DNA from: Kondoa subrosea
Lineage: Eukaryota
Assembly (NCBI GenBank): GCA_039545335.1
Contig: BCIN01000001.1
Location: 2,483,136 to 2,547,135, forward strand
Direction: 5' to 3'
DNA length: 64,000 bases
In this document: in pieces, positions 4,801 through 64,000 of the stretch
Numbering within the stretch: position 1 is the stretch's first letter
How the letters are laid out: the number at the start of each line of letters is the position of its first letter
The notes under the pieces: generated by a model
Seen by the model: the letters and a program-made list of their open reading frames with translations, nothing else
The model's database searches: none
What the model was told of the DNA's origin: nothing
Program-made: the position numbers and the translations under genes

Positions 4801-5457
4801 GCGGAACGAGATACTTGAACAGCTCCGGGAGCAACTAAATCCACTTCTGCTTCGACGGAAGGAAAGAGAGTTGGAGCAGGTAGTGGGAAGAAAGTACCAT
4901 AGAGAGCGAGTTCAAGTGTAGAGACATTTTCTGATGAAACAGGTTCGTGTCTGTTCACACTGTCAGCTAACTCCTTCGTTCTTATGAGTAAATCTGTACA
5001 TACACTGTTACCAGGAATGTACCGTCTGGAAACGTTCCCTCAACCATAATCTCATGCAACAAAGCAGGTACACAAGGCAGAACATGTCTGCGGCCTAGAA
5101 TCGTTTTGCCAATAGACATAAGTTGGGCGACGGAATGTTTTCCATCACGAATCTAATCAAGTTATTGTGTAAGAAGATGGATCGATATAGCACTTTCCTA
5201 CTAACCAATTCTTGCAACACGGTAGCAATGAGCGCTGTGGCTTCTGTGACATTCAACCGAACCCCTCTAGCCAAACGCTTTTGAGCGAGAGAGCCGGCCT
5301 AAGTAGACAGGCATAGGTATGAATATGGAAGAGAGATAAGGAAAGATAAGAGGGAAACAGACAGAATGCAAGAGTAGCTTGTCGATTTCTCGAGGTGACT
5401 GATGCAGAATGAGATCAGTGCAAACGCATCTAGTAAGCCGGAGCGTACGAGATGCAT
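1862..5457 (-). CDS. URE1: Urease (fused gamma-beta-alpha, multi-exon)
   Basis: [14 protein letters not shown] start; [66 protein letters not shown]-terminus [10 protein letters not shown]. Confidence 0.97.
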
Positions 5458-5579
5458 TTCGTGAGCAGCCTAGCCCTTTCTATATTTACGCAAAGTCGCT
5501 TGTTCGCAAAGAACCACTACACACGCGAAATGATTCGCTCGACGTCGTGATCTACACCTTCTGTACCTTACGCAAGTCA

Positions 5580-7426
5580 ATGATCAACGCCAGGACAGCA
5601 TCGCTGACAGCACTTTGCGTTCAGTAAGTGTCTTTTGTTTACATTTTATGCGCAGAGTTTTGTGCTGAATGGGTTTCTCTTAATGAAGCTATGCCACTCT
5701 CACTCTCACGATTCACGCTAGTCGAGTCAACACGGCACAAGAGACGCGGTACAAAGCTTCAAGCGCTGTCCTGTTGACGGAAACTGGCAAGGCATTGATC
5801 TCCCTGGTTCTCGCTTTCATTGAGCTGGGATCTCGCGCAAGAGAGACTCCCGTCCGGTCTGGCTACGATACCCCACCAATATCTGAGCAGCAAGAGAAAT
5901 CCTTCCTTTCATCTGGAGTTGGCCTGGGCATTATAGAAGACCAGAATGATTCGCCCGATAGGACTGTTCTGGAGAAATCCCACGGCAGAAGACGCTCAGC
6001 TAACCAGAGTCCTCAGACATCAAGACACGCCCACAGCAGATCTACATCGCTCAAGATCATTCCCTCAAGTCCCGATACCGTAATTCGTCAGCCTGCTTAT
6101 CCACCGCACTCGACGGATCTCTATATCAATCAACAGTCTGAAGAAAACCATCAACTTCTAGATATTGATCCTGAAGAGAACAATGAAGAATCATCCAGTT
6201 CAAGCCAGTCTTCGTTTCGGCAAGTGTTTCAGCAAGTCTTTGCTGGGAAGTTCTACAAGCTAGCCTTACCAGCTGGACTGTTTGCACTGCAAGGCAACCT
6301 TCAGTATTTGGCAATAAGCAATCTGAGTGCACCAGTATTTCAAGTGACTTCGCAATTAAAGGTAAGACAACTTCTTCCGTTAAGTGTTTAATGCTGAAAA
6401 GATACTTCAACAGATTCTTACAACCGCGATATGCTCGGTCTTGATTCTTCAGCGGCATCTCTCCGCTCAGCAATGGCTCTCTCTGTTTATTCTGGCTCTT
6501 GGCGCCGGTATCGTTCAACTTCAAGCTTTAAGAGAAACTCTACACACAGCACTTCCCTCAATAAACCCCATGACCTCGAACACAACAACCACACCATCAT
6601 CTACATTCACTCTTCCCGCTCCATCATCAAACGCCTTTCTTGGTTTTTGCGCAGTATCCCTAATGTCGCTATCCTCCGGATTTGCAAGTATTTACTTTGA
6701 AAAGATACTGAAATCCCTTGCTACGCCAATGCCACCAGCTTTACCTTTCTCTTCTCCTCTGCCACCTCCGCCATCTACAAGTACAACAACAACACAAAAC
6801 GCAATGAAGGAATCTTATTCCAAACCTCCTCAACTAACACCTATCTCTCTACCAATCCCATTACCCAATCAAGAACCAAGCGAACCTGTCAGCCTTTGGA
6901 TCAGGAACATTCAATTGAGCATGTTTGGGCTACTGTTTAGCGCTGCAATGTGTGTAATAGAGAGCAATCAAGATTCTTGGGGATCAGATCATCAAAGGTT
7001 TAGGACATTGAGCGAACTGCACAATGGTTTTCTTGAGGGCTTTACCGGTATTGTTTGGGTCGTCGTTGGTTTGCAGATCGTGAGTAAACATGGTTCACGC
7101 CTTCGTCTCTGCCTGATTCCTTTGTCAACACGCAGATTGGCGGTCTATTAGCTGCACTGGTGATGAAGGTTCGTTTGCTTCCAAGTGTTGTTACCTCAAA
7201 AGCGCTGAGCTGTCGTATTGGATTCTAGTACGCTGACAACCTAGCAAAGAATTTTGCAACCAGTCTTTCCATTATCCTCAGCTTCGTAGCATCTATGGTT
7301 CTCTTCGACTTTGTTCTCACTTATGAGATCGTTTTCGGAAGTTCATTAGTCATTGGCGCTACCATTCTTTTCAACAGTCGAAATCAAGACCTCGCTGCTC
7401 TCGTTGGTTGGTCTTCACCACGTTGA
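5580..7426 (+). CDS. Nucleotide-sugar transporter, SLC35A (UDP-galactose-like)
   Basis: KLALPAGLFALQGNLQYLAISNL..FQVTSQLK, SGFASIYFEKILK, SLWIRNIQL, KYADNLAKNFAT; multi-exon. Confidence 0.85.
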
Positions 7427-7638
7427 TCGCCAACTATAGATTTACACCATTCGAAATTTTCAAGCAAGAGTCACTCGTATCGTTCAATTGTATAGCATAG
7501 TTCGGCTCGTTTCTGTACTAAGCATTGCATCATTATTTATCAGAGCACAACCCTGCTATTAACACGGCCTAAAAAAAAAGGAGGAAAATCTACTAAATGG
7601 ACTGTCCGTAATGCTCGATGTATCTATATTTACAAAAG

Positions 7639-10600
7639 CTACCGCCTTGCACCAGGCGGGAGTGAAGGCAGCGTGTCTTTCAGAGTAGGGGATTGAGGCA
7701 CCATGACTGGCGAAGTAGCGGAAAGAGACGGTGTAGCTTGAGATGACCGTCTTGTCCTGTTTACTTCCTTGAAACCGGTCGATGAAGCCACAGGCCCATC
7801 ATCGCGAAGTGATACACCGCCAAAGCGTGAGGCAATAGATGAACGTTCTGGTCGCATTGATTGACCCGGTCTTGGTGACTGTTCGCCTTCTGAAGACTGC
7901 TGGTCCATCAGGTTTTGTTCTTCAGGGGTTCGTGGGCCTTGCGAGCGGCCACGATGATAGACAGAGAGATCAGGAGAGGACGGAAGAATGCCTCGCGAAT
8001 CGTCTTCAGATCCGTGAGGAGGTGTGTGTTCAGGAGGAGTAACAGCGCTATAGTCTGAAAACCGGTTGGGACTGCCTCGAGATGAGACTGCAGCCAATGG
8101 TGCCGGAAGTTCCAGCTGTGTGACACTGTGACGATTATAAGAAGAAATTACTGAAGCTTCATCGCCAAATGGACCAGAAGAATGATGAGGCAGAAGAGGT
8201 GGGTTGATGGGACCGCGCAGGACAGCGTGATGATCTTGAGAATAACTTGGGTTGGAGTAGCCTGTTTCCGACGCTGCAAAAGAGAAATTAGCGAATTGAT
8301 ATGCCAAAATAGCAGTACACACATGATCCAGCACTCAAGCGATGACCATCGTAGTCCTTCAGCGGCTGAATATCGCGCATGACTTCATAAGTTGACTCCC
8401 GCGAGTGATGATTGTTGTTCAGCTTCCATCGTCGTTCCCTCTCGAATTCAGCCCATCGCTTCATCACGATATGTGTGGAGTCAAATTCGCCTTCCTTGTC
8501 GCCATGATCGTCTCCTTTGTCTCCTACGATCTTACGCGTCTGACCCCAGGAGCTTTAAAAGGCATGTTAGATAATACTATGACGACAGATTGTTGCACTT
8601 ACAAGTCATCCATGTGGAAGTAGGCGTATGCAGGTACTGTGCTGTCTTTTAGCATGCTGTTGTCAAATCGCACATATCTTTACGCACAGACAGCATTCCA
8701 GATTGGTAGCGATAGAAGATAGATCATCATCCTGCCAGCGTAAAATCAGCGAGTGGATAAGTTTATGAGATGTGTACAAACCATCCTACGTAGGCCAATC
8801 GCCGCGACGTCAACACGATCAGACAACCAGGTAAGCCAAGAATGATAGCTAGAAGGATAAGAGGAATAATAGGCTTGACTGTTCCAGGTATGATGGTCAC
8901 AATCTAGACGACTATTGAGTTTGCGCTTGCACACGACAAGTACACGAAGCTTACAATGAGATACAGAGTGAAAGCAATAGCAGCGGGCAAAACAAGTGTA
9001 CCAACGAGTTCCATGAACTGAGCAGTTCATCAGCGGGCGAATAACAAAAGCAAAGTCAGACTCACCACCACGAACTGCATCGAGAAACAGAACGTTCCAC
9101 AAAGATCTCGGACGAGTACCAATTCGAACAAGTTGTGAATAGTCGAATTGATCCATCTTCGCCTTTGCGACAAAAGAACTCGGAAAGTGTCTGGTACAAC
9201 CGTTTTGCATACAGCTTGCGGGCAGAACATATTCTTGCGGCGAGGGAAAGTCTTGAGGAGTAGAGTAGTCAAGTATCGATCTTCACCCAACAAGAGCAAG
9301 TTCTTCTTATGTAAAGTGTCCACGACATTTTCAGAATAATGTTCAACGATATCTGGATTGGCCAAGATGGGAACCCAGTAGTTGTCGTTACCTTTAGGTG
9401 ATTTGATTCGATACATGCTGAAGCAACCTGGGAGACATGTCACACCGCCAAATGTTGCTTCAAAGGCTTTTGTCAGATGATGGGAAATGTAGTATTCGAA
9501 GACTGTTTGAAAATTAATCAGCTTAAGCAGTAGCAACCTGAAGTCAGGTTTACCCTGAATCATAGTGACCCAAGTCTCAGCTTTGTTGGCGATCTTTGTC
9601 TCTCCGCAAAGACCCATGATCTCCGGATCACGAACCATGCAAGCGGTCATTCGAGAAAGCGAATCGGGGAAGACCTTGGTATCGGCATCCACCATAAGAC
9701 AGATTTGGTAGTTATCGGGACTAACGCCAGTGCATCGCCACCAGGAATTGAAGAATTCGTAGTCGAAAGTAGTCATTCGCTCATCAAACATGATCTTCTG
9801 AAGGAAACTCATTAAGAGCACTTGAGAATCTCGCTTTCCTCTATTTCCTGGCTTTGCATCATGTGCTTCTAGCGGATTACCGACTTTGGCGACCAAAATC
9901 ATTGGAACTCTTTGCTGCTTTGATGCTTCTATAGTTTTGTCGTCATAGGAATAGAAACCAGCATAGACCTTTGCCAAATTATGTCGCTTGTGCCCATCAG
10001 CGATAGCAACATAGGAATGACCGTCCACCTCTTCTGGTGGGATGACGAATTCCTTCATCATGGTCAAGCAAATTTCTGGAGTTGTGAGGTTGTTTCCGGA
10101 ACCTTTGACCATGCCATCTGCGATGACAAGAAGAACCTTGTGCGAATTTGGGTAGTCCGTGGTAGCCAGTGAATCCAAAGTCGTTCTCAAGCCTTCTACC
10201 GATTCGGAATACGCTGTAACGAGAAGAATGTTGTGCGTTAGAGGGAAGTTGAAAGGTTCATAGTCTGCTGGAGGCTGAGGTATACAGTTGTGAAGGGGCC
10301 AAGGACACGAGCTGGCCGGCGAGCCAAGGTCCGACATTGATGACACGCGAGACTCTTTACCAATGGGCTGAAGGAGCTGTTAGGACGTTAACATTATCTT
10401 GAGCTGGAAACTCACTGATGTAAAGCCAAGCGAGCTGGAGCTACGTGATTCCCTATCCAGGCCTCCAGGAGATCCAGGAGGTGAGTTCTTCATCGACATG
10501 CCTTGAAATTTGACGATGCCAGATGTTTGCGAAGCCATATTGCCACTTGTTCTGGGTGAGTACGCTCCGTAGCTGGATATCCGATTGCTAGATGTAGCCT

Positions 10601-12587
10601 GCTTGCCAGTCTGTTGCTGCTGTTGGAAAGCGGCACTACTGAAGCGACTTTTGGTAGGCAGCATGCTCTTGCGAGCGTTTGGACGATACCGTGCTGGCGC
10701 AGGTTTGTAGATATCCGAAGTCCAGTTCTCAATTTCTGCTGCTCTAGCTCTTCTTTGGTCGTACGTCTCTTTCGGATAACCTCCAATCCGCCATGATAGG
10801 AACCAACCGAAACCCACTGCCAAAGCAAATTTGATGAAGACGACACCAATGATGAAGACCAACGAGACGTAGAGAACGATGTCGGCTGCTATACAACCCA
10901 CAGTTTTGCTGTCGACAAAGCCGACTCGAACGATATCGCTCAAACAGTCTACCAGATCTGTTTGTTCATCTCTGACAATCTGCATAGTGATGTCTCGACC
11001 GCGATAATTGTCGTCTCCTCGAGCAAGCTGTGTAAAGAAGGCTGGGATATTGACTTGTGTTGGACTGAGCCAATTAAGAAGGTCGAAATCCAAAACAGAT
11101 CTGTGGAACGAGTAAGTCGGGAGCGTTTGGGAAGCAAACACGCCTTACGATTGGAAGACAGCCAAGTTGCGACTGCTATTCCGAATATCATCCCACAGGT
11201 AATACACTGGACCCTCGCGCTTCATACCCAAAATTCGCTCGTTTGTGGCATCGGAGAACTGTTGACGAGCTAAATTCGAAGTATGACAAAGCTCTCCCGT
11301 CGCATAGCCGGTCAAGTTGGTAGAACTTGTGCCGAACTGATTGTACATGTTGCAAGGGAAATACCATCCCATTCGGAGACCATCTGTCGGGATACCAGTA
11401 GTGGCAGAAGGTGTGAGTATACCGTAACATTTCTGATTGACTTTTTGAAAGAGAAAGGAGCCATCCATACTGCCTGCGTTGAAATCGGAAAAGAGGGGAT
11501 TCGAGTTTTCTTGTATGCCTGCTGCGCCAGGATGTTGGAATCGATCCATAGAGTAGTCGTATCCGTGAAAGATCATAGATCCGCCTGGAACGGTTCCTTG
11601 TCGATATCTTGTGGCTTGAGTTCCGCAGACAGCTTGAGTAAAGCCGAAAGTAAGGAAACCAACAGCTGCCATCAGACCAAAGATGATAGATAGCAGACCA
11701 ACTTTCTCTCGCCAGGCGCTTTGTCTTTCCTTTGTTTTCAGGCCTGACGCGCAAAGATAAGCACAGGCCTAATTGCGTTAAAACAACTTACCCATTTTCT
11801 TCAGCAATACACTTGGAAAGATCGCTGTGACTGTTTTGTAGTAGATCGTCCATGCACCAGGTGGTCCCTTTTTGGATTTGGGCATTTGCTCAAGTTCTTC
11901 TGTGCGACCTGCTTTTCCTCTATTCCGCCGTATAGTAGCTCCACGCTTCAGAATTGCTTGACCACTGTCTACTCCAACATCTTCTTCTCTTGCCAATATA
12001 CTCTTCCCCCTGCGAAGGGGCATTGGTCTCGCAGCAGAAGAAGTTGGATCGTCTCGACCTAAAGCATGATAGGCAGCTGAATGCGATGGTGGTTCCAGAC
12101 CGATACCAGCTTGAGGATAGTTTCCTGTCGCGCTAGGGCCAACGACACCAGTACCATCCATTTCCATTGCTGCCGCATGGTTGCGGTAGTTCCACAAGCG
12201 ATGTCCAGGATCAATGCGCTCGCGATCTGGGCGGACCAGTGACTTCTTTCGCTTAACATCGACTTCTCCGTGTTGCGCAGATGTATTGATATTACTGTTA
12301 CGAGGTAAATCCTGGCCAAACGAAACCTGAGGTCCGCCTGTGGAAGTACCGGGTCTTTGTTGTTGGTTGTGAAGTATCGGAACATTAGGAGAGTCATCCA
12401 AAGTGTCATATTTTGAGGAGGACGCCTTGTAATTGGACTCCAAAGTCGCTGTGGAACGTGAAGAAGAAGTTTGAAGGTGCAATGGAGCTCTTTGGCGTTC
12501 CGGTCGATCTGCAGATGGTACGAAAGCACCAGAAGCTGGCTGCTCGCGCGCAGGCCTGTTAGGGTCTTGATAGCCTGACGATGCCAT
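7639..12587 (-). CDS. Chitin synthase, class IV (Chs3-like)
   Basis: [53 protein letters not shown]-terminal [14 protein letters not shown]. Confidence 0.95.
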
Positions 12588-13002
12588 GCTTATTGAGAGT
12601 GTTTTTCAGGCGAAGCGTTGGACCGAGCAGTTGTTGCTCAACTGATGTGTGCTGCCTGGATAGACCCTTTGTGATGCTCACTACGCTTGCAGCATTCAAA
12701 GTATATAGCTCTTGCTCTAGAGATGTAGGAAAAGAAAGGAGAGTAGGTTTTCTTGCCAATTCTTGCGACCTGCAATACGGCCGGGTTCTGTTCGTATTGC
12801 TGTGCAGTGTACGACAGAGTGTGTATCTATCTATGTTCTATACAGGGTATCAGTCGCTAAGGATATGCGGTTTTTGTCGACAACGGGCAGAAACAACGCA
12901 GTTTAACATGTGGCTAACTTGAACTGGAGTGGCCGTCTTGCTAAATAATACATACAGTACTGAATAGATGGATCAATTACAATTACAACACAAGCAATTC
13001 CT

Positions 13003-16000
13003 TCAATCCTCATCCGAATCGGCTACAATGGCTTTGCGTCGCGTCCGTACAGTCAGCATTTCTTCCTCTCCTTCTGCTGGCTGAGATAGTTCATGAGGTT
13101 GAGGACTACTCGCAGAAGTGGCAGGAGTTGATTGTTGAGCAGATGGAGAGGAAGAACGAGCAGAAGTAACTGTCGATGCAACATCAGCAGCTTTCCTGCT
13201 TGTGCTTGTTGGTTTCGCCTTGATCCTCTTGGCTGGTTGAGCAGGAGCAGAGGATGCAATCGTCTCATCATCTTCATCCAATTCAGCGGCTTTTGATTTC
13301 CGTTTCTTCTTCGGTGCTGATTTGCTTGCTTGACTCTTCTCCAACCGAGCTTGTTCTGCTGCCACATGCTCCGCATCCAATCTTTCGCGCAACAATCGTT
13401 CTCGCTCAAAGAATGCAGCGTCTCTTTCTGGGTTGTCCGCATCATCATCGCTGTCAACGAATTGAGCAGATTTGTAGGACAACAGTTTTGCTTCAGCTCT
13501 GCGTTTCTTCTTGCGTTGTTTGGCACCTTCAGCTTCATCTTGGTTGTCCGACTCGTCGGAGTCTGCAGCTCTCTTTTTGCCTTTTCGACCCTTCTTTGGT
13601 TTGACAATGAAATCTCCGTTATCGTCAAGATCGCCTTGTTCCGCGTCCGAAAGAGACACGAGCTTCTCTTTTGCTTCCTTCCTTGCGCGACGCTTGACAA
13701 CTTTCTTGACCAGGTCAGCAACGCGTCTGCCCGTGCCGGGGTCAAGAGGATTGATCAGGAAATTGTCGATGAGTTTGATGTCTAGAGCAAGATCTTTGGG
13801 TAGACGAGAAGCGGGAATAGTCCAGCGAAGGCATTCGCCCGCGAAGTCTGTCGTAGACTCACTGTTCAGCAGCTAATCACATCAATCTGCTGACAGCGTA
13901 CCTTCTTTCGATTCCCAAGCCAAAACACGCAATAATAGCTTGAAGTTTGAGTTCTTGGTGCCCGCAATCTTTTGCTCGTCGTCGACGTAAGGTACTTCTG
14001 TATGGCATCTGTTAGCTTGACTTCAGCGCAACAATGCTCTCATGACGAACCATAGGGAGCGAATTTAGAAACGGCTTCCTCGCTCGGCGGACGTGTCATC
14101 ATACTTGTTCGTATTGCGTTCGCATCTAGATCGCCATCGAGATCCATAGGTGCCTCTTTCACTGGTAGACCATCTGTGGCGAGTACGATTTCATCGCGTG
14201 CGGCAGCAGCAAGTCGCAATGCCTGGACTAGTATTAGTGGTAGCATAGTAATGGCTGATTACATCGCCCACATCTTTGACCCAATCGAGGAGAAACTCTT
14301 CGTTGCGTTCGCTGAGCAAAGCAATCGCGATTCCGAGTTTCTGACTTTCGGACCAGTCCTCCTTGATTTCCACTTCTGCAGGCATTGTAATGCGCTGTGC
14401 AACAGATAGCATAAGTTCTCTTGTCCTGGCTTCCCGAGAGCAAAAGGTGTACCTCTTCTTTATCTGATTCAGCGAAAGCGTCCTCTCCACGCATCATCTT
14501 CTTGATATCGCCTTTTCTATGGGGATAGAAAGCCTGTTGCAAATGGTCAGAAAGTGCGTAGAAGAAAGCTGCTACTCACTTCAACAAGTAACAAAGGCTT
14601 TTCTCTGGCCATCTTAAAGAATCGCTTGAGAATGAAATCGATCAGTTTAATGAGATCTTGGTAAGGTTGTTGCCGAGGCATCGATTTCTTCTCGTCCAAC
14701 ATTCGTTTGAAGAGACTGAGCACAGAGACTTTGTAAAACAGACCGTCTGCTTTAGCTTTGACTGCTTGACGATGCATCAAAGAAACAATTCGCTTCATCT
14801 GCTCCTCTGAGGTAAACGTTTTATAGCTGGCTAAGTATGTCATGCAAGTAGCAAGGACAGCTTCGCTCGCAAAGCTCTGTATCTTGAATCAGCGGTTGTC
14901 GAAAATTCAAGCTTTGCGACGCGACTTACAGCCTCAAAAGAAGAAAACTGGAAAGAATGAGTCGCAAAATCAGCTTGGCGGGATTCTTTGTCTTGTTCCT
15001 CATCTTCGCTCGCATCATCTAAAGGCGCTCCGTCATCTTCAGCTTGCTTGTTTTTTCTCTGACGTCTACGCTTGGCCGCGCGCTTCTTCTTCTTCCGCAC
15101 AAACATGAATTCGTTATTTTTGCTATAACGCTCCAACATGCGCAGCAGAATGTAGGTCAAATTCATGATAGCATCCAAGTATCGCTTTGACTGGTCCTTG
15201 AACTTGGCAACAACTTCAAGAACCATCTGCAGCGTTTCTGCTTCGTAATAAAGTTTGTTTTGCAAAATGTCTGCAACTTCGCGATACTCTTCATTACTCG
15301 ACTGCGCCAGAGCTTCGATGGTGAGGAGCTGAAATTACACAAAGTGAGGCAGAGTTTTCGCAGAAAAGGCGAGTTTTTGGCTTACAATCTGAATAAAGCT
15401 GTTGACAGCTGCGTGCAGTTCTGTCCACATAGGCGGTTTCTCTTCCATTGCCATCCTCATTCGCGCACAAACGTATCCTATCGAGCTGGCTTCCGTCATT
15501 TCTGCAATTAGATCGAAGTCGTGCCCTTGTTCAGAATCTGGCGATATGCCTTGTTGGTTTTCTGATTGGCGGAGAAGAAGAAAGTATTCAAGGAAGAAGG
15601 ATGATAGCACAAGGAAGCGGATGTTGTCGATTTCTTTGACTCCCGCGCGTTCGATTCGAATATCGTGCAAGATGGAAGCGAAGAAAGCTGAGCACCTGTG
15701 ATTAGCATACTGGGACAAGGAGATATCATGTACATACGATTGAAAGCGCTGTCTATGAAGCCAAGGGCTACTTCTGCCAAACATTTGACTGCCTCAGGCT
15801 TTAGGTCGGATGAAGCAGGCGCCAGATCATCTTCAAGCCTTGTTTTCTTCTTCTTTCCCTTTTTGACTGCATCCAAGATCTTGCTCGGGGACAACACCAA
15901 AGCCGACTGTTTGTGCATGATGTATCGCTTGTTGCTTCCGTCACTTGTTTGCAGGGCCACTGTTGTACCAAACCGAGAATGCCTGGTATTACTCTTCCGC

Positions 16001-17078
16001 GAGTCGACTTTCTTTGCTTGCGTTTCCGCCTTCAACAGATCAGCAAGCTTGTTTGAGCGAAGTGCTGAGAGGCCATTAGCGCCTGTCGCTGTGGCTGTTG
16101 TTACCGAGACCAGTTCTTGAGCCTTGACTGACCGGAAGATGAGATGCAGCAGATCGAGCGCGATTAACGTCCAGGCTTTGAATTCAGATGTGTCCGCGTT
16201 GGACGCTATCGTGACTAAGAAATCGAAGACAGATGAAGAGTGCAATTGTATGATGAGCTCGCTCTAGTTGGGACATTAGTCTACACAATTGTAGATCTGC
16301 ATCTTACTCACTTGCAGGGACGCTTGTTCCAATGCCTCGGTTGATAGGGATGCGCCGGCGACTGAGTCTTTCAATGCAGCCAGATTCCGGAAGATGTGCA
16401 AGATCATCGAAATGATGTTTACATCACGTTCTCTTCTGTCTCGTTTCGACTTCTCCAGCGAAGGCATTGTTATAGCGAACAGAGTTTGGATTGCATTTTG
16501 TCGCAGAATTGCTGCCTTGTACGATGATTGTATTGCCAGCAAACCCTTGTAATCAATCTTTGCCCGAGCAGCTGGATCTTCGCTACTTTCGTCTAATAGA
16601 TCAGCATCCTTCAATTCTTGAACTGGATCAATAGGCCAAGTCATGGCTAGAACCAGGTCTGCTGTTGCCAAAGCCACTTTGTGTGCCGTTGTTCCAGGTT
16701 CGTGATGCGCTGTTACTTGCAGGATAGGAAGCAGATCTTTCCTAAGAAGAGCCGTTTCGTGAAAGATCCTTGCGATTGTACGATTGTCATCGAATTCATC
16801 GAGCTTCCACATCTTCTTGAGATCCTTGATACATGAAAGACACTCATCACCTAGTCGAAATACGCGAGAGCTTTCTCCAGTCTCTTCGTCCAATTCGTCT
16901 TCGTACTTTGCGATAAGTCAGCGCCGCAACCTGAAGGCAGCTCATAGTAACGTACACCGCCCAGAGCAGCTACAAGCATCTCAACTGGCTTGCGCAGAGT
17001 TGCTTTGAGGGAAGCTTTCGCTTCTGCCTCGTTTTGCTGATCATCTGGTTCTTCGTCAGAATAGCCATTGCGGTCCAT
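13003..17078 (-). CDS. TOF1: Replication fork protection protein Tof1/Swi1/Timeless
   Basis: LGDECLSCIKDLKK, LAMTWPID, RHSRFGT, LMHRQAVKAKADGLFYKVS; acidic/basic tail YKSAQFVDSDDD. Confidence 0.9.
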
Positions 17079-55500: not shown

Positions 55501-58500
55501 TTGATGCGAGTGCGTTTCCGCTGAAAAGCTGAAAGACCTTGGAAAGTAGCATGGAGAGCATGCAGGAGCTTGTTTTGGAGGTCCAGCTGTTCGCGGTCGA
55601 TACATATGAGCAATCGCGACAACAGGCAAACTTGAATCTTGTACAGGAGAGACTGATCAATCTCTCCTCGTTGTATGACGACTTGCAGTATATCCGTTGC
55701 TGCCAAATGAATCTGTAGGTTTAGTCCTTCCATGACAGAACTCAGCTCTTCCGTCGGATCAGATGACAGAAAGTTGACCATGACTAGACAAGTTGCGTCT
55801 AGATAGGTAGTTGATGACATGGCGTTCGCCTCCGCCAACTGTTTTAGAGCAGAATAAGCCGTAGATGAAAGTTGAGCGCCTTTTGCCGTCCTCTGAAAGC
55901 CCGCTCCTCGAGTCAAGAAAAGATTGTGAAGGGTGGAAAGAGCGTAGTGACATTGGGCTTGATCAAAGTTAAATCGATATTCGTTCATTGACAGAGTTTG
56001 GCCGCATAGACTTATTTGCCGTGGACTTCTTCTGATGCGAGTATGTAATAACATCACCAGAACGGGATCCAGAAGCCTAGGATAGATCATCAATAGTGCG
56101 CAACGGCTATAAAGAAGAATTCACCGAAGATAGCTTTTGAAGCTACAGCGCATCCATGCTTCAGCAGCTCTGCGTGTAGTGAGGCTATCGCTTCGTACCC
56201 CGTCTAGAACGAGGAACAGAGGTGCGGTCAGATATTGGGAGGGAAGCGACGAATCCTCTACTTCTCACTGTCAGTCTCTTCTTTGACGCAAGGAAGCTCA
56301 TGCACGCACCTGACGTCCGCCAAAGGTTTCCAAATGCATCGTGGCCGTCAGATCGTGTCTTCTCGTCAGATGAGGTCATCTGTTCGCAAATAATGGCTTC
56401 AAGGTGATTGACCTGAGTGACAGAATGAACCAGCCATATCAAGCGGGTGGTTTCGACAGAGAATGGTAGACGATCAGCAACAAGGAAGGAAAGCAATCTA
56501 TGTACGATGGTTCTGACAAGCGATCGCGAGTCGATGTCAAGGACAGGTTGAATGGGTGACTGATGCAAGGCTACTATGGCTTGAACAATCTGTGAGACAG
56601 TTTCGAAATCTTCTGATGACTGATCTAGGTTTGCAAACGTAGATAAGACAGCGATGACCCATTCTTGCGGCTGCCAGTCGATTTGAGTTTCTTTTTCGAG
56701 AGCTGCGGTGATCAGCGAGATGGCATCGCAAAGAGAACTGAGGAGGCCCATTGAAGATTTTTCAGTATCAAGGGATAGTGCTAGTGAGCTTGTAAGGCGA
56801 AGAAGCACCGCTAAGCCTTGGGTAGAAAGAGTGATCGAGAGTGTTTCGGCGGGTAACGAAGCTTGTTTGATGTCCGTCGACTGATAGAAGGTAGTCGCGA
56901 TATCCAAGGATGCTCCCGTAGAGTAAGAAGGCGTCACTTGAACGGCCCTGGATGCAGTATAAAAGTCGACAGGTATATCGTCTAGCAAATTGTGAAGAAG
57001 TTGACATGCAACCTTGTGCTTCAGTGGGAAGTCGCCGGCAGAACTTATGGAGATCTGAAGTAGTTGATGAGCTATAGAAACGAATGATCAAACAAGTCTT
57101 TACCTCCAACAGGTCGAGAAGCGAATATGCGAAGATTGGCAGATGAACGCGCAGAATCTCTTCTTCGTGTAGCTTGAACGTTTTTAGGACGAAGATGACC
57201 AATTCGATGTTCTGAGTCCGTATGTCTGAGTTCAATCCGTTGACAAACAAGATCAAAGCCATACCTCTGATTGATCCGCTGCATCTTGCATATCTTTCTT
57301 GACGGCATCAAAAAGCATCTTCCAGGTCAGATATGGGTCCAGCCCTTCCCAGAGCACGCCAGCCGTAACTCGCAATTCTTCTTTCCCTGTTTCACCCTCC
57401 AAGGCTTTGCGTAATGCGCGAAAGGTGTCCAAAACCAAAGCTTCAGTGAGAGGGTAACCAATTTCCCATTTATCTAATAAGGCGACAAATATTCTGAAGG
57501 GTCTTTGCTCGCTCGCCTCCATTTCTTGCTTCAGCGCAACGCAAACGATATCCAATCCGTTCGCTCTGAGGTAATCGACCGCATTCTCTTGATCGTTGCC
57601 TAAAAGCCAGTGATGTAATCTTCTACTTAGACTGAGGTCTCTTTTTAGTACCACTCCGAGCAGAGAGCGCACGAGCAGAATCTGATCATCTTTTCTTACT
57701 TCTTGCTTAAATCCTTCTCCATCCATTTGAAGCAGATTCAATAACAGATCCAATATTCCACGTTGAACCAGAACTCTTCCATCATCTATCGCAGCTGCGA
57801 ATCCTCTAACCATCAAACCCACGTCTTGTCCCACAAGAGGACTTAATGCTTCTTCTTTCCCTAAAGCAGGTAATCTTTTGCTCAAATAGTTCAAAGCTGC
57901 CACTCGAGAATTAGGGCTAGTGAGTAAGATGAGCCAAAGGTGTTGAAAGAAGAAAGCAGGATCCACAACTCCTGAGATCGAGTCGAGCAAAGATGAACAT
58001 TTGTCAAAGAATTCGGAAGTCTCTTCATCCACGCCTGGTAGAAGCGCTAAGATGAAAGCTTTTGTTACTGGTCGTAGAGCAGATGAAAGTGGAAGGTAGA
58101 ATTTCGAATAAATGCCCAAGACGATGGGCTACAAAAGAGAATTCAGCGCAAGACGAATGGACGCTTATAGCAATTAACTCACGCGAACAGATGTAGCTGC
58201 GAACTGGAAGAAGGGAAAAAGACCTGAAGACCATGCTGCCAGATCATACCGCAAGTTATCAGGCTGCAGTCTTCGCATCAGAACTGACGACACTGTAGAA
58301 GATTGCTGACATACACCTATAGTATTGAGTATATGGACATAGACGTCCAAAGCGCGTTGATGTACGCCAGTAGGTAGAGCTGGATTTAAGCATTGCGCCA
58401 ATCTCTTCGCTACAGTGAGTTTGTGAGGAATGATCTGAAACTGCGGATATGCTTGTAGTGTCTGTATTATTACACACAGATTGAATTCCAGCGATAGACA

Positions 58501-58771
58501 TGAAACAGAGTGAATTGACCTTGAGCAGTCTCGCCAAGAAAGTGATGAAGTCCGCCCATTCAGCTACAGATTCAAACAGTGCCAGGGACCTTTCGACTGA
58601 AGCTTGATATTTGCGATACTTTGGATCCGCCAGCAGAACTGTTTCAACCACAACATTCATGCATTTCGTTTCCTGGTACTCATGCCAGCTGCAAGGCTCA
58701 CCCTTCTCTTGTCTAGCATAGGGCGTCACAGCAGCCTGTCTGATACTCCCAGTCGAGCCACTCCTGATCAT
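52564..58771 (-). CDS. DOP1: Dopey/Dop1 trafficking protein
   Basis: DPKYRKYQASVERSLALFE..EWADFI, AQCLNPALPTGVHQRALDVY, LLPGVDEE, LVQRGILDLL, RDLSLSRRLHHWLLG, LRRLSYAILAGEKN. Confidence 0.93.
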
Positions 58772-58909
58772 TCAAGGCTGCGAGAGTCGAGTCGAATTGG
58801 TTGAAGAGCAACGTCGAGCAACCGCATCTAATCCGTACAATCCCCATGTACTCTTTCCTCGAGACGCGCTTTACCACCACCCATACGGTATGTCAATCCC
58901 CGATATCAA

Positions 58910-59035
58910 ACTAAAGTTTTAACCGGAGGTCATCCAAAAAATGCATATCGTTCAAAACCACATAGCCCGAAGGATCACACGTGACCTGGAATGCCAGTTA
59001 AGGACAACTAAAACGACTTATGTCTTCAAGAGGTT
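58910..59035 (-). ncRNA. Candidate omegaRNA scaffold downstream of the Fanzor-like gene
   Basis: Nested stems found by eye, including a cUUCGg tetraloop, 3' of the Fanzor-like stop codon; boundaries uncertain. Confidence 0.4.
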
Positions 59036-59219
59036 GTTGAGCAATGGGGTGTTGGAGAGTAGATGAAACAATCGAGCCAACACTTGAGTACAGAAAGAGC
59101 AAACAATAAGCATCTGTCAAATACTGATGTCAGAGCAGCATATTGAGAGCCTTTGTTTTGGTCTCACATTGACTCATAACCCAGAATGCATGCTTGACTT
59201 GCCAAAGTACCAAAACGAT

Positions 59220-62200
59220 TCAAGCTCGAGAACGTTTATCGAGGTGATTGAGATAGTACGGATTGGCTGGAGTTCCTCCTCTCTGATCAACCCAATTCCC
59301 TGCTGCTCTAACATCTCTTTCTTTTTGCCTGATGTAAGGCAAAGAAGCAGGATAAGCGTTATGAGCAGGTAATTGTCCAGACCTCATGAAAGCAATGCCA
59401 TTGTCTCTTATATTACTTGCTGCTGCGCCATCTCTAGGTCTGAGAGATCTCAATTGATTGGTCTGAGGAGGAGGAACATGACGAGCGTATTGACCAGGTG
59501 GTAGTTGCCGAGGAGGAGTAGCTTGAGAGGTAATGTAATTGATAGCGCCATTGATGTTTACGTTCGGCGGTTGAGTTGGTGGACAGATAGTGCAACCAAC
59601 TAATCTCGTTGCTTCCTTATCCTCGGTTTCGTTATGAGCAGAAGTAGGGCGAAGTGATCCATCAGGTATAATGCAATGCTTGCGCAGTTTGTGATTGCCT
59701 GGACCAGGAGGTCGAGCATATTTGGTCCTAATATTGGCCAATCAGGAACAATGTACTTGGTGCAAATATGCGACTCACTTATGTCCTACCGGGCAAACGT
59801 AAACTTTGCTCTTGATCTTGACGCCTTTATGAGGTGTGAGACCAGAGAGTAGTTCGGAAGGATCAGCGCCAGGTAAAGGAGGAGGAAGGCCATGATCCAA
59901 AGAAGCAGAAGAAGTGCAGCATGTTTGAGTCGTATCATACTTTGGTACGGTAACAACGCTATATCGACCTTGCACAGCGCTGCCTCGAGCAAATCCCTTA
60001 AAGAGATGCGTGAGAAAGCGTTCGGATATGAAAAGCCAGCATATATACCTTTTGAGCAGCGGATCTTTTCCCTCTCGCAGCTGAACCATAACCCTCTTCC
60101 CAAAACAGTACAGCATCTTTCCAGGGCTCCTTCGGTTCTCTTTCTACAGTAGGAATCATCTTTCTCTGCTTCCGCTTTGCTTTCTTTTTCGCACGCCATC
60201 TTCTTCGCTTCCGATTTTCCCTGAATACCAGAGACTGTCCTTCTTCTAGGAAATGGTAGTGAGAGAGGTTGAAAGCATTGTAACGATAAGCTTTGGCATG
60301 AGTATGAGCTTTAGCCCCAACACGGTCGAAATGACGGGATGACGCTTTCAAGATAGGATTGGTGAAACGACTCATAGGTCGCCAATGATCGCAATGCAGA
60401 GAGAAGTAATCTGAAAGACCTTCCAGGCCTCTTTGGTAGAGCTTGGCTACTCCATCAGCCAGTTGTTGTTGGCGTTCATCATAAGTAAAGACTTCAGGCA
60501 ATGAGCCATTAGCTATCCAAGTTCGGACATTCTTGGCTCGAGCTGCAGCGATCATCCTCTCATCTCTTGCTGACAAACACTGTTCTCCCATGAATTTACC
60601 AGAAATCGCTCGCCTATGACTCTTGAATTCCTTTACTGCCATCTCATATTCATAATTATAAGTTCCTTGACTAATCTGACCAGTGTTCAGCTCTTGGTCT
60701 AATCGAATCAAAGTTGCGGAAAGGTCTTGTCTAGCTTCTCCCAGATTCTTGTCAACAGATTGAGTCAGAAATGTTTGACCTGGATCAACACCAGCAGCTT
60801 TTTGGGCACCAGGAGCTGGTGTGTCAAGGAATTGTTGAGCTGGCATACGAGGATTATTGTGAAGAGTAGTAAGGAAGCCTTCATGGTTGGTATCAGGGAA
60901 GACTTGATTCGGCAGAGGCATATTTTGACCTATGTTCCGTCTTTCGCTGAGTTCTGCGTAAGTAGCAACTCGATTCGCTATAGCTAGATGTGGCTTTCGA
61001 CGAAGTTGTTCTGCAGTAGGCTTATATTCGAAACAAATTTGCATCTCTTTGTCGCCATCTGATTTGAAATAGAGCTTAGTGAGAGGCAACTGCTCTTTAC
61101 ACTTGTTGAAATAGAACTTTCTTCCCTCTTCATCGCATTGCAAAGCCCAAACATTAGGAAAAGCAGTTACTTTGCCAGTGTCTTCATCTTGATGTTTGAA
61201 GAAATGAGCCATATACGCGATTTGGTCCTCTTCTGCTGCTCTAAGTGTTGGCATACGAAGGACATTCCGCTGTCCAATATTATTGAGCTCAGTCGCGCGA
61301 ATTGAATCAACCAACTTACTTGTGTCAAGATTTGAAGGTTCTCCAACTTGATGGCAGGCAAAGAATGGTATTTGTGTTGTACAGCAGGTACAATGATACC
61401 CCTTAGTATTTTGTAATTGACGAGCAGAATTTCTCTTTTCATTTCGGTCTTGCGCGGCGCCATCTTGAGGTGAGAGAAAGGTGGTTCGACTTCGCCTTCA
61501 TCGTTTGTAGCTAACACAACGGCACGGGTAGACATATAGACCATTATAAGAGCAGCTGGTTCATAGAGTACATCGTTGTTTTCAATTATGGTTGACCAGT
61601 CTGCTGCATATCGCTTGAGTTGAAATCTTGCATTGCTTACTGATTCAGGGAGAGGATTAGGAGCGCCTGCTATCGCTTTGAGGTGTTTGTTGCCCAAGGT
61701 TCTTGCAGGGTCCAAAGCCCAGACTAGTAAAGAATATAGTCGCATAAGGGAGTTTACAATTATCTGGCGATCCGCTTGACTGTATTGGAAGAGAGAATTT
61801 CCGTTCTCGTCGAAGAAGGCATGATGATCTGGCCCCCAATTGTACAAGACCATTTGACCTTGAACGTGAAAATTGGCCACGTAAAGTGGTTGAAAATAGA
61901 TGTGAATGATTATTGCCAGTTCCGCCATCTCAACTTCTGGAAATTCAAGAGCCGCTAGCTCTAATTGTATAAGCTTGAGAAGGCTAGAGTCGAACTTGTG
62001 GGTGTAAAAGCCTTTGACTTCGCCCATCAACATAGGCGCTTGACTTTGCTTGAGCCATGTCCATGATTGGTCTCTAGAAGGATGATGCAGTTCGGAAAGA
62101 TCAATTTTGTCGAAAGGAGCGTTTGGAGGTGCAAGATCAGGAAAAGCAAAGTTAGCAGGCTTCTGTGTAGTGAGCCCAGGTTGTATGCAGTGTAGGTAAG

Positions 62201-62666
62201 AAACATCAAGGTGATTGAGCTGAGGGCTATTGGGTTGTACGTTATCTTGTACTGTTTTCAAAACAGCTTCCCCAAAAGGTGCGTCGAAGTGAATTGACGG
62301 CCTAACACCGGTAGAAATTGGTAAAGGCTCGTCTCCAACTGGAATGTGAAGGAAAGGCACCACTCCAGGCGGATTTGGAGTCAAAGTAATTTCAGTAGTA
62401 GCGAAATTCTGATAAGGCAGTAAAGGTGCGTTTGCTGTTGCGACGGCAAGATTGTGATTTATAAGAAAAGCATAGGCACCTCTTCTAAGATGAGCTTGAA
62501 CCAGATATAGCGCCACGTAATGCCAGTGAGTCCAGGTGCCCGCGGTTGCTTTTACTTCGGCTTTAAAGCGCAAGACACCTTTACCGCCAAGCATACTTTC
62601 GGAAAGAGAGCTTCGAGGCGTTCCATGCCTCCTCGTTTTTCGTTTCAAAGTTCTACTTGCAGGCAT
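59220..62666 (-). CDS. Fanzor1/TnpB-like RuvC-domain protein, 4 coding exons, ~1097 aa
   Basis: Exons 62666-61320, 61269-60049, 59996-59779 and 59727-59220 total 3294 nt in frame. Motifs FKSDG..MQICF (WED TDG-like), AAGVDPG (RuvC-I), VLFWEEG..RGKRS, VVTVPKYDTTQTCC, Cys-rich zinc-finger-like region, RPRDGAAASNI (RuvC-III). Confidence 0.8.
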
Positions 62667-64000
62667 AGTGGGTCTATCAGCAGGATCAGCAAAGAGGCAA
62701 CGAGCATCTCGTTCACTCACAGTTTTCAGAGGACAGTGCGGACAGATAGACAACGAAACAAGTAGATGACAAAATTTAGCTCACTGTACAACCTATCTCA
62801 GCTATACTGAGCAGACTGCGGTCCAGCTCAACTTACAAGGTGCCCAAAATGAGCTGTTGCCCGACGCACAAATTCGTCAGACTGGTCTCTTCAATAAGCA
62901 GGTACAACTCACAAATGTGAAGATGATGATACAACGTTGATTCTCGATGGTATATTGCCAAAGTATGAGGTCTGTGCAAGGAAAATAAGGAAAATTGGGT
63001 TGCATAATTCGGGAAGCATGACTCACGCTTGATGCTAGAGAATACGGAGTACCAACGTGCGAACAAAGAATTGTATTTCAGATACAAACGAAACGTTTGA
63101 AATAGTCAAGTCAAACTTGAGACGAAATTTGCGAAAGAAGATAAAAAGAAGAAGCACAAAGATACAGCGAGAGTCAGACCAGCTTCAAGTATGCTCGCGA
63201 AGAGAGCTAGAGCATTTGTCCGTCGTGGTAGAGATAGACAGACAGACACAATTTTTCTCAGATATAGCGAGACAGGTCCGGTTGAATGCGACGCGGCAGA
63301 ACAAGTGCACACGTACAAATGCAGTGTATCGCACAGTCCTTGTAAAGCGCTAATGATAAAAGTCTACACCGGAAGAAGGTCAAAGCTTTGCTCTTTCGAA
63401 AATCACAAAGGCAAAAAATGGAAAGGCAAGTCAATCCGTACCCAGACTTGAAGCGATTCTGAATAGGCCATTCTGACGGCCTCGATACGATCAACACAGC
63501 TGTGGTCTTCGTTTAGCCAGAGCTTAACGAGGGAAACGTATAGACATATCTCCCAGGCTTCCTTTTGGTTTTGGCAATAAGATAGAGCTCAGAACAGCAG
63601 AACAGAAGGCATGAACATTATCAAAGGATACCAGTCAAAGCGAGGAGGAGGATATCAGTCAAAGCGAAATAACAGATCCAAGCTTGTTCGAACGAATCTT
63701 TCTTCGCGTCTTTGTCCGCCCAAGCGGAAGTTTGTCAGCAAGAAGGTCTTTCAGCCTCAAGTACTGTGATCGAAAGGAGCTTTTATCGTGTTGCGTCGCA
63801 ATCAATAGGTTCGTTGCTTAAAAGAAGGCTCCTGTGCGAAATTCAAACGACTTTTGTGCTGAAACGATTCAGTCAGAAGCTCAGACTTGTGATTTGAGTA
63901 CTCTCGGGCACCTATAAACACCTCTGACACAATCCTAGCCTAGTGGGTAATTCTCCTTCTTACTTTGAACTCGAAGCTGAAATCAAACAGCAGAGAAAGA

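Follow-up and report, generated by a model that had tools for sequence, protein, structure and literature searches.

The closest described systems are the Fanzors, RNA-guided RuvC nucleases that differ from canonical TnpB and Cas12, with their D-E-D triad, in the RuvC-II motif. Fanzor1 proteins are recognized by a RuvC-I D-P-G motif (PMC10711439), an inert Gly or Pro at the position of the canonical RuvC-II Glu, an alternative catalytic Glu with six residues between it and the first zinc-finger Cys (the ExxxxxxC rule; PMC10711439), a CxxC...CxxC zinc finger between RuvC-II and RuvC-III, a RuvC-III Asp in N-R-D-x-N-[AG]-A-x-N-I, 4 to 8 residues past the second CxxC, a PF07282 match, and a guide (omega) RNA encoded at or past the 3′ end of the gene. 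All Fanzors without the canonical Glu are reported to have the alternative Glu (PMC10530073), and those "Fanzors" that had been described with the canonical Glu were reassigned to wrongly annotated TnpBs of prokaryotes (PMC10711439). Both positions have been mutated in ApmFz2, where cleavage is abolished by E467A (PMC10530073). According to a 2026 preprint (10.64898/2026.06.23.733943), G416E combined with a small residue at 467 (E467P) gives trans-cleavage with minimal cis-cleavage, and when the residue at 467 is bulky, G416E leaves little activity or none, as measured by trans-cleavage; the accompanying modelling lists Lys among the long side chains. Eukaryotic domestications of Fanzors are expected to turn up, as stated in a further report (10.1101/2023.11.30.569447). 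Here we describe a eukaryotic gene, from Kondoa, in which the canonical Glu is present and the alternative Glu is missing. It is a natural counterpart of the swap engineered in 2026 to alter Fanzor cleavage behaviour and therefore a ready test of that swap's effect in nature.

The gene lies on the minus strand of the window, the whole 64-kb stretch of DNA that was analysed. A scripted gene model (62666-59220) has four exons and 1097 codons plus stop, with no in-frame stops in an open frame of ~3.3 kb, and its three introns of 50, 52, and 51 nt are all GT..AG. Exon 1 (61320-62666, residues 1-449), which lies inside a 528-codon ORF, starts with a basic N-terminus (MPASRTLKRKTRRHG) and encodes an N-terminal region without detectable relatives: Pfam, NCBIfam, and PHROGs give no match for it, and its top score in the ESM Atlas is 0.78. 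Exon 2 (60049-61269, residues 450-856) encodes an SDG motif, RuvC-I, a helical region, a basic stretch, and the first RuvC-II strand; exon 3 (59779-59996, residues 857-929) encodes the strand on which the alternative-Glu position and the zinc finger's first Cys lie; and exon 4 (59220-59727, residues 929-1097 plus stop) encodes a CxxC, a P/Q-rich spacer, and a RuvC-III-like motif. With three spliceosomal introns and fungal housekeeping surroundings (chitin synthase, urease, Timeless, and Dopey genes nearby), the gene is unambiguously eukaryotic. GC content is uniform across the region, and codon usage is host-like (RSCU correlation with pooled neighbour ORFs, r = 0.67). Within the 64-kb window the gene model matches its own place only (tblastn), with no second copy; terminal repeats around the gene were not found in 56-64 kb of the window; and gene and flanks occupy one 20.6-kb contig in each of two Logan assemblies. 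The locus looks single-copy. The two assemblies are identical over 58700-63200 at depths of 142 and 53; they represent two DNA runs of one sample, which might itself be the origin of the window, and hence do not count as independent.

The RuvC-II region departs from Fanzor1 at two positions. Its first strand (minus strand 60114-60085, gct gta ctg ttt tgg gaa gag ggt tat ggt) reads A-V-L-F-W-E840-E841-G-Y-G, in which E840 is encoded by GAA (60097-60099) and E841 by GAG (60094-60096). The second strand, V-T-V-P-K875-Y-D-T-T-Q-T-C882 (59919-59954, minus strand), has a Lys codon, AAG (59940-59942), 7 residues ahead of the first Cys. E840 and E841 in exon 2 are split from K875 in exon 3 by a 52-nt GT..AG intron (60048-59997), and E840 and K875 are 35 residues apart in the spliced model. 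An HMM of 30 giant-virus Fanzor1 ORFs places its Gly column, which is the canonical-Glu column of TnpB, on E840, the next column (Asp) on E841, the alternative-Glu column on K875, and the first zinc-finger Cys on C882. The alignment crosses the junction of exons 2 and 3 and keeps the reference spacing, which is 35 residues in 28 of the 30 references and 34 in 2, and the piece spanning residues 860-1012 scores 2.9 bits, a value that none of 1000 shuffles reaches. All 30 viral references have Gly in the Gly column, and the alternative-Glu column is Glu in 30/30 only because the motif used to select them contained that Glu. E840 thus occupies the position of the inert Gly or Pro, and K875 that of the catalytic Glu of ExxxxxxC. 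These codons and HMM columns bear out an earlier note on this DNA, which had put Glu at the ancestral TnpB position and Lys at the Fanzor position of a Fanzor-type RuvC and had given the same three codon coordinates and 35-residue gap; the profile of genuine Fanzor1 sequences backs the RuvC assignment and puts WEE on the RuvC-II strand column, and both Logan assemblies, from one sample that is maybe the source, read AAG at 59940-59942. Each swap is one G-to-A transition from a Gly or Glu codon; no RIP signature that could account for both changes was detected, the two indices (0.76 and 1.42) being like those of the window.

The remaining motifs are preserved to different degrees. RuvC-I is G-V-D611-P-G (60778-60792, minus strand), the Fanzor "DPG" signature, with which the Fanzor1 HMM aligns its own RuvC-I (8 of 1000 shuffles score as well; hhalign P = 0.013), and residues 450-600 give no signal against that HMM (675/1000 shuffles as good). 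The second zinc-finger pair, C974-T-I-C977 (59583-59594, minus strand), is present as CxxC. The first is degenerate: it reads C882-C883-T-S885, so that a Ser stands where the second Cys belongs. All 30 Fanzor1 references have Cys at both columns (C562 and C565), and the Kondoa finger has four Cys in total. A P/Q-rich spacer of 50 residues then separates the second CxxC from the RuvC-III-like motif R1027-D1028-G-A-A-A-S-N-I (59409-59435, minus strand; D1028 codon, 59430-59432), compared with the usual 4 to 8, and the Asn of RDxN, present in 30/30 references, is replaced by Ala. This motif scores 6.5 bits against a phage TnpB HMM (0/1000 shuffles) and is matched by 10/1000 shuffles against the Fanzor1 HMM. 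A look-alike string with Asn in the place of Asp, N984-V-N986-I-N-G-A-I-N-Y (59535-59564, minus strand), lies 8 residues past the CxxC, at the usual spacing, and is aligned with Fanzor1 RuvC-III by hhalign; by HMM it is insignificant (93/1000 and 335/1000 shuffles as good), and R1027-D1028 is the better supported RuvC-III motif. The proposal that both RuvC Asp residues are intact therefore stands firmly for D611; in RuvC-III the motif of D1028 is supported but displaced, and the Asn look-alike sits at the usual spacing. We also considered an internal duplication of the RuvC-III region and rejected it, as look-alike and downstream motif share no similarity (571/2000 shuffles).

As a whole, the spliced protein scores 12.9 bits against the Fanzor1 HMM (E = 7.8e-4 among 501 sequences), and the best of 500 shuffles reaches −0.6 bits; the match is weak and local (residues 796-887), with an hhalign probability of only 3 to 4%. 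Within the reference set, the L117 ORF matches PDB entries 9cf0, 8gkh, and 9cer at 4.6e-41 to 1e-21, and L064, L117, and L178 pass PF07282. Searched as separate exon translations rather than as the spliced protein, exons 3 and 4 of the Kondoa gene have no match to PF07282 (Cas12f1-like TNB domain) at E values up to 10; Pfam, NCBIfam, PHROGs, and PDB sequences yield no match for the exon pieces or for the family profile, and against the phage TnpB HMM the whole protein falls within the range of its shuffles, without any signal. An AF2 model of exon 2 from six sequences is poor (pLDDT, 47.7; pTM, 0.29). In the ESM Atlas, the nearest clusters come from giant viruses and Mucoromycota and are annotated with PF26935 or PF07282, which we treat as a lead only. 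Distant descent from a Fanzor1-type RNA-guided RuvC nuclease is the best explanation of these sequence likenesses, and guidance by RNA would follow by homology.

We compared the protein with the solved Fanzor1 proteins of Spizellomyces punctatus (8gkh), Parasitella parasitica (9cf0), and Guillardia theta (9cer) and with the giant-virus ORFs L117, L178, and L064. It shares with Fanzor1 the DPG of RuvC-I and an upstream [ST]DG motif, the order and 35-residue spacing of the RuvC-II strands, the x-Y-x-T-T-Q-x-C strand, the CxxC, the RD..A.NI motif, spliceosomal introns, and basic NLS-like stretches, and with L178 a long insert within the zinc-finger region. In contrast to Fanzor1, it has Glu for the invariant Gly and Lys for the invariant alternative Glu, a degenerate first CxxC, RuvC-III 50 residues past the second CxxC, and a 449-residue N-terminal exon without relatives, and its similarity is so low that a dedicated profile alone detects it. 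Fanzor1 is transposon-borne and usually present in several copies, whereas the Kondoa gene has no transposon ends and is apparently single-copy in the window and in the contig of the two assemblies. Like canonical TnpB and Cas12, it has Glu on the canonical column at the end of the RuvC-II strand, and its RuvC-III stretch RDGAAASNIRDNG resembles that of phage TnpB (the 6.5-bit match above). Unlike TnpB, it has DPG rather than D-hydrophobic-G, it lacks a whole-protein TnpB HMM signal, it is a eukaryotic gene with introns, and its Glu is secondary, as its relatives have Gly.

These relatives are rare. We found four matches among representatives of 1.84 billion proteins; in a 5.8-billion-protein collection there were none among longer proteins, three among proteins of similar length, and four with the family profile; and cluster members added five further sequences. 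Exon 2 is 46 to 48% identical to P0001, P0002, and P0005 and 22 to 23% identical to P0003 and P0004. The E840 column is Gly in 5/5 relative clusters and 10/10 sequences, which read WGEG, MGEG, or VGIS, and Glu at 840 is therefore derived rather than inherited, as judged from this alignment. The K875 site is readable in the P0003 cluster alone, because in the three closest clusters and in P0004 every gene call ends or goes astray at a shared intron, just after QK or QD. This distant cluster has, in a by-eye alignment, G followed after 35 residues by E-Y-x-T-S, and thus Glu at 875; its tail gives no signal against the Fanzor1 HMM (162/1000 shuffles as good). A reading of the P0001 read-through tail as an in-frame exon 3 was dropped, since by eye it has no Cys and no motif. 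Loci of the relatives were not found in metagenome contigs (two scans) or in viral contigs. Of six relative-rate tests, one exceeds a chi-square of 3.84, indicating no clear acceleration, and at columns invariant in the relatives the window sequence differs at 4/25 and P0005 at 3/24.

The earlier note had offered two readings, a Fanzor that uses the D-E-D triad and a nuclease-dead binder, and each retains some probability here. Our preferred reading, held tentatively and at a little under an even chance, is that the gene encodes a nuclease-impaired Fanzor1 derivative, either domesticated or relic. The Gly at the ancestral TnpB position would have become Glu (E840) and the relocated catalytic Glu would have become Lys (K875), with loss of the working carboxylate of the Fanzor site; the long cationic side chain of K875 would then fill the pocket beside E840, which would need that space to reach the metal. 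With Glu for Gly and Lys for the catalytic Glu, normal DNA cutting would most likely be gone, and, by analogy with the engineered ApmFz2 variants, guided double-strand cleavage is most likely lost or strongly reduced. Those variants (ApmFz2-EX, G416E plus E467 substitutions) change the same two positions in the same direction, and the Kondoa gene represents the combination of Glu with Lys; they are laboratory mutants of a giant-virus Fanzor2, whereas the Kondoa protein is natural, Fanzor1-like, very distant, and known from sequence. As the sole experimental comparison, they lean toward impairment. The activity inference draws on this one preprint, and ApmFz2 is very distant from the Kondoa protein.

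If the impaired protein still works, it would bind instead of cutting, as a domesticated derivative; if not, it would be a slowly eroding relic. Erosion near the site is visible in the Ser for the second Cys, the Ala for the RDxN Asn, and the 50-residue P/Q-rich spacer; signs of maintenance are the 1097-codon frame, the three canonical introns, and the lack of clear rate acceleration. Domestication, as we infer it, would make the gene comparable to the TldRs and other nuclease-dead TnpB/Cas12 derivatives, in which a TnpB-family scaffold likewise lies outside a mobile element with its catalytic site altered. TldRs, however, are RNA-guided repressors of bacteria, with a guide RNA gene next to them and with defined targets, and neither a guide RNA nor a target was detected for the Kondoa gene; the Kondoa protein also retains residues at two of the three acidic positions, and its inactivity is argued by analogy. 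A more far-reaching version is conceivable, if doubtful: the fungus may have domesticated a Fanzor1 as a single-copy host gene with a naturally rewired RuvC-II. The product would be a eukaryotic equivalent, the first of its kind, of the nuclease-dead RNA-guided regulators of bacteria, or else a natural canonical-triad Fanzor with altered cleavage. If maintained, the gene would be a candidate for the predicted Fanzor domestication, undescribed in the literature searched.

Against impairment, E840 falls on the exact column of the canonical TnpB/Cas12 catalytic Glu, and both D611 and, in the RD motif, D1028 are present, so that a working D-E-D triad is chemically possible. The protein may accordingly be an active revertant whose catalytic Glu is back at the TnpB/Cas12 position and which cuts with D611-E840-D1028, K875 being tolerated or even helping, e.g., through a phosphate contact. 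The frame is intact and the rate not accelerated, as would suit such an enzyme, and ApmFz2 G416E with a small 467 residue is an active trans nuclease in the 2026 preprint, so that the scaffold can use the canonical position. In that same preprint, however, bulky 467 residues leave little or no activity, Lys is named as long, and even the best variant shows minimal cis-cleavage; in Kondoa, moreover, the zinc finger and RuvC-III show erosion and displacement, and no guide-RNA signal was detected (folding of the 401-nt 3′ region does not surpass that of shuffles, z = +0.78, and Rfam gives no match). We regard an active revertant as unlikely.

Functionless decay of an old, immobilised Fanzor copy, in which the two catalytic changes are unconnected neutral hits, seems to us improbable as well, and would make the gene an ordinary dead copy whose two hits resemble the engineered swap by accident. 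The Fanzor1-invariant Gly, Glu, second Cys, and RDxN Asn are all lost and a P/Q-rich low-complexity insert has been gained, as expected of a relic, and no RNA runs with the gene are listed, with four relatives among the 1.84 billion proteins' representatives. A Gly codon GGA or GGG would turn into Glu by a single transition, so a random Glu at that site is not unlikely. Such decay sits poorly with a 3.3-kb open frame, three intact GT..AG introns, an exon 2 that evolves no faster than that of its relatives, neighbour-like codon usage, and the missing RIP signature. That the protein is no RuvC or Fanzor protein at all, and its four motifs are chance likenesses, is highly improbable: the blank database searches, the lack of a whole-protein TnpB signal, and the poor AF2 model would fit, but the shuffle controls for the Fanzor1 HMM (0/500 above −0.6 bits), RuvC-I (8/1000), and RuvC-III (0/1000 with the TnpB HMM), the collinear matches at the reference spacing of 35, and, as a lead only, the PF26935 or PF07282 annotation of the nearest ESM Atlas clusters speak against it.

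The basic stretch R802-K819 (RKRRRWRAKKKAKRKQRK; 60160-60213, minus strand) is a basic run that is kept in the relatives; it may serve as an NLS or as a helix that binds RNA.

Both flagged codon sites lie in one minus-strand gene, which a plain ORF listing breaks into pieces. Joining four minus-strand exons (62666-61320, 61269-60049, 59996-59779, and 59727-59220) gives a single open frame of 1,097 codons; the three introns (50, 52, and 51 nt) are all GT..AG. From N to C terminus, the spliced frame reads G-V-D611-P-G, a basic run (R802-K819), A-V-L-F-W-E840-E841-G-Y-G, V-T-V-P-K875-Y-D-T-T-Q-T-C882-C883, C974-T-I-C977, and R1027-D1028-G-A-A-A-S-N-I, with 35 residues from E840, at the canonical TnpB Glu position, to K875, at the Fanzor alternative-Glu position. 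Rereading the sequence gave the same codons as the earlier note: GAA at 60097-60099, GAG at 60094-60096, and AAG at 59940-59942. Exon 1 (449 residues) has no detectable relative or family; its best ESM Atlas score, 0.78, is to Basidiomycota hypothetical proteins.

General libraries were silent: Pfam, NCBIfam, and PHROGs had zero matches for the exon translations or for relatives, PDB sequences had none with the family profile or exon pieces, an HMM from 65 collected phage TnpBs gave no signal on the whole spliced protein, and AlphaFold2 of exon 2 (six-sequence alignment) was unusably poor (pLDDT, 47.7). We therefore collected genuine Fanzor1 genes for a dedicated HMM by scanning a set of viral contigs for two RuvC-III motif patterns. 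From a listing of 55 unique viral ORFs of at least 300 aa, we took 29 with both DPG and E-[YFWHL]-x-[TS]-[TS]-x-x-C, plus that of contig L064 (n = 30). The 658-aa ORF of contig L117 matches solved Fanzor1s (Parasitella 9cf0, 4.6e-41; Spizellomyces 8gkh, 2.8e-38; Guillardia 9cer, 1e-21), and the L064, L117, and L178 ORFs pass Pfam PF07282. Against the spliced protein the Fanzor1 HMM scored 12.9 bits (E = 7.8e-4; best of 500 shuffles, -0.6), in an alignment that crosses the exon 2/3 junction and sets E840 on the Fanzor Gly, E841 on the Asp after it, K875 on the alternative Glu, and C882 on the zinc finger's first Cys, upholding the earlier placement of the two RuvC-II positions. RuvC-I aligns with Fanzor1 RuvC-I (8 of 1,000 shuffles scored equally; hhalign P = 0.013), and RDGAAASNIRDNG aligns with RuvC-III (0 of 1,000 shuffles with the TnpB HMM, 10 of 1,000 with the Fanzor1 HMM); hhalign also gives a long collinear alignment (P = 0.0097), though its probability is just 4%. 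The HMM score and the collinear local tests point to a very distant Fanzor1-type protein. ESM Atlas neighbors, a lead only, come from giant viruses and Mucoromycota and carry PF26935 or PF07282. The same RuvC-III pattern also caught ORFs of about 500 to 550 residues with DPG and an N-E-S-Y-T-S strand on contigs L124, L161, and L191, which are of a different, TnpB/Fanzor2-like type; Pfam, run on L124 only, found IS605 OrfB HTH and core domains.

The RuvC-II arrangement of this gene is probably derived. The Gly column is Gly in all 30 Fanzor1 references, with the Glu 35 residues on in 28 and 34 in 2; the Glu column is invariant by construction, because the selection motif contained that Glu. Relatives are scarce (4 matches among 1.84 billion representative proteins), and searches of a 5.8-billion-protein collection with the gene and the family profile found no more. 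Identity to the window protein is 46 to 48% in three clusters and 22 to 23% in two, and all five (10 sequences including cluster members) have Gly at the E840 column, as WGEG, MGEG, or VGIS. Because relative clusters and references all carry Gly, E840 is a secondary Gly-to-Glu change. Toward the second site, gene calls in the three closest clusters and in the more distant P0004 stop or derail after QK/QD at a Val (GTN) that is the donor of the window's 52-nt intron (59997-60048, minus strand); this shared intron is therefore old, and the second site is unreadable in these relatives (P0001, P0002, P0005-P0008, P0004). The P0003 cluster lacks this intron and, aligned by eye where the Fanzor1 HMM stops short, reads G, 35 residues, then E-Y-C-T-S, the normal G-then-E order of Fanzors. 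K875 thus seems to replace the Glu inferred for the family, the second site being read in the P0003 cluster alone. P0001 starts at a point corresponding to the acceptor region of the window's intron 1.

Surroundings of the site are worn: the second Cys column of the first zinc-finger pair is Ser, and the Asn column of RDxN is Ala. In Fanzor and TnpB, the RuvC-III Asp sits where the window protein has N-V-N986-I-N-G-A-I-N-Y (59535-59564, minus strand), a look-alike 8 residues past C974xxC977 with Asn replacing the catalytic Asp. This stretch was not significant by HMM, and hhalign put it, rather than R1027-D1028, on Fanzor1 RuvC-III; the RD motif, which scores better, comes 44 residues later, behind a 50-residue P/Q-rich spacer that follows CxxC. 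D611 and D1028 are both present, but with Asn at the usual RuvC-III place the earlier note's statement that both Asp residues are intact is likely but not certain; if the look-alike is the structural RuvC-III, a second catalytic residue is gone. A similarity test ruled out the look-alike as a duplicate of the downstream motif. The giant-virus Fanzor1-type ORF at L178:2838-5795 (minus strand; 986 residues) carries some 130 inserted residues between its zinc-finger halves, with G, alternative Glu, and RD all standard; long inserts therefore do occur there.

In the portions consulted, PMC10530073 reports that every Fanzor without the canonical Glu carries the alternative one and that E467A kills ApmFz2, a giant-virus Fanzor2; PMC10711439 defines Fanzors by DPG and a Glu six residues ahead of the zinc finger and takes canonical-Glu "Fanzors" to be prokaryotic TnpBs annotated in error. 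A 2026 preprint (10.64898/2026.06.23.733943) introduced the corresponding swap in ApmFz2, whose residues 416 and 467 are the counterparts of 840 and 875: G416E+E467X variants were active with small or medium X and had little or no activity with bulky X, G416E+E467P gave strong collateral and minimal targeted cleavage, and its modeling names Arg, Lys, and Met as pocket-filling long side chains. The window protein corresponds to the "E plus Lys" combination. Because engineered "E plus bulky residue" enzymes are weak or inactive and the site surroundings are worn, we tentatively favor a nuclease-impaired Fanzor1-type derivative, which would either persist as a binder or undergo slow decay. Guidance by RNA we infer from homology alone; folding of the 3′ region and Rfam gave no guide-RNA signal, though these tests are unable to show absence. 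An active D-E-D revertant, using E840 as the small-residue variants use their introduced Glu, seems doubtful with Lys at 875. The literature consulted yielded neither a natural eukaryotic Fanzor with a canonical-site Glu and a non-acidic alternative site nor a domesticated Fanzor; in the parts seen, a 2026 review counts Cas12 and TldR as the sole domesticated forms (PMC13565253), and the TldR preprint predicts, no more, Fanzor domestication (10.1101/2023.11.30.569447). The main interest of this case, which is based on one gene, is as a natural counterpart to engineered RuvC-II rewiring.

A relic without function is an unlikely reading of the same wear: of 25 residues invariant in the family, 4 are lost from exon 2 (sisters, 0 to 3), and exon 2 is not clearly faster evolving than its relatives (one of six relative-rate tests >3.84). 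That the likeness to Fanzor1 arose by chance is very improbable. Two Logan assemblies (from two runs on a single sample, which may be the window's source; depths, 142 and 53) are identical over 58700-63200, including AAG at 59940-59942, and in each a single 20.6-kb contig covers gene and flanks, which argues against base-call error and a high-copy repeat. No terminal repeats were found around the gene and no second copy within the 64-kb window; GC is even across the region, RIP indices are ordinary, and codon usage correlates with pooled neighbor ORFs at r = 0.67 (neighbors among themselves, 0.44 to 0.67). Neighbors are ordinary fungal genes, including a proteasome/CSN subunit. A Dopey (DOP1) family gene (57253-58771, minus strand) starts at 58771, some 450 bp downstream of the stop codon of the Fanzor-like gene, so its promoter region would contain any guide RNA or element end. 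Urease, a class IV/V-type chitin synthase with a CHS4 domain, and Timeless lie at 4185-16893. The window holds 12 N bases, ten clustered in 267-749 and the others at 21191 and 45596, and the Logan assemblies come to about 19 million letters, pointing to a small fungal genome.
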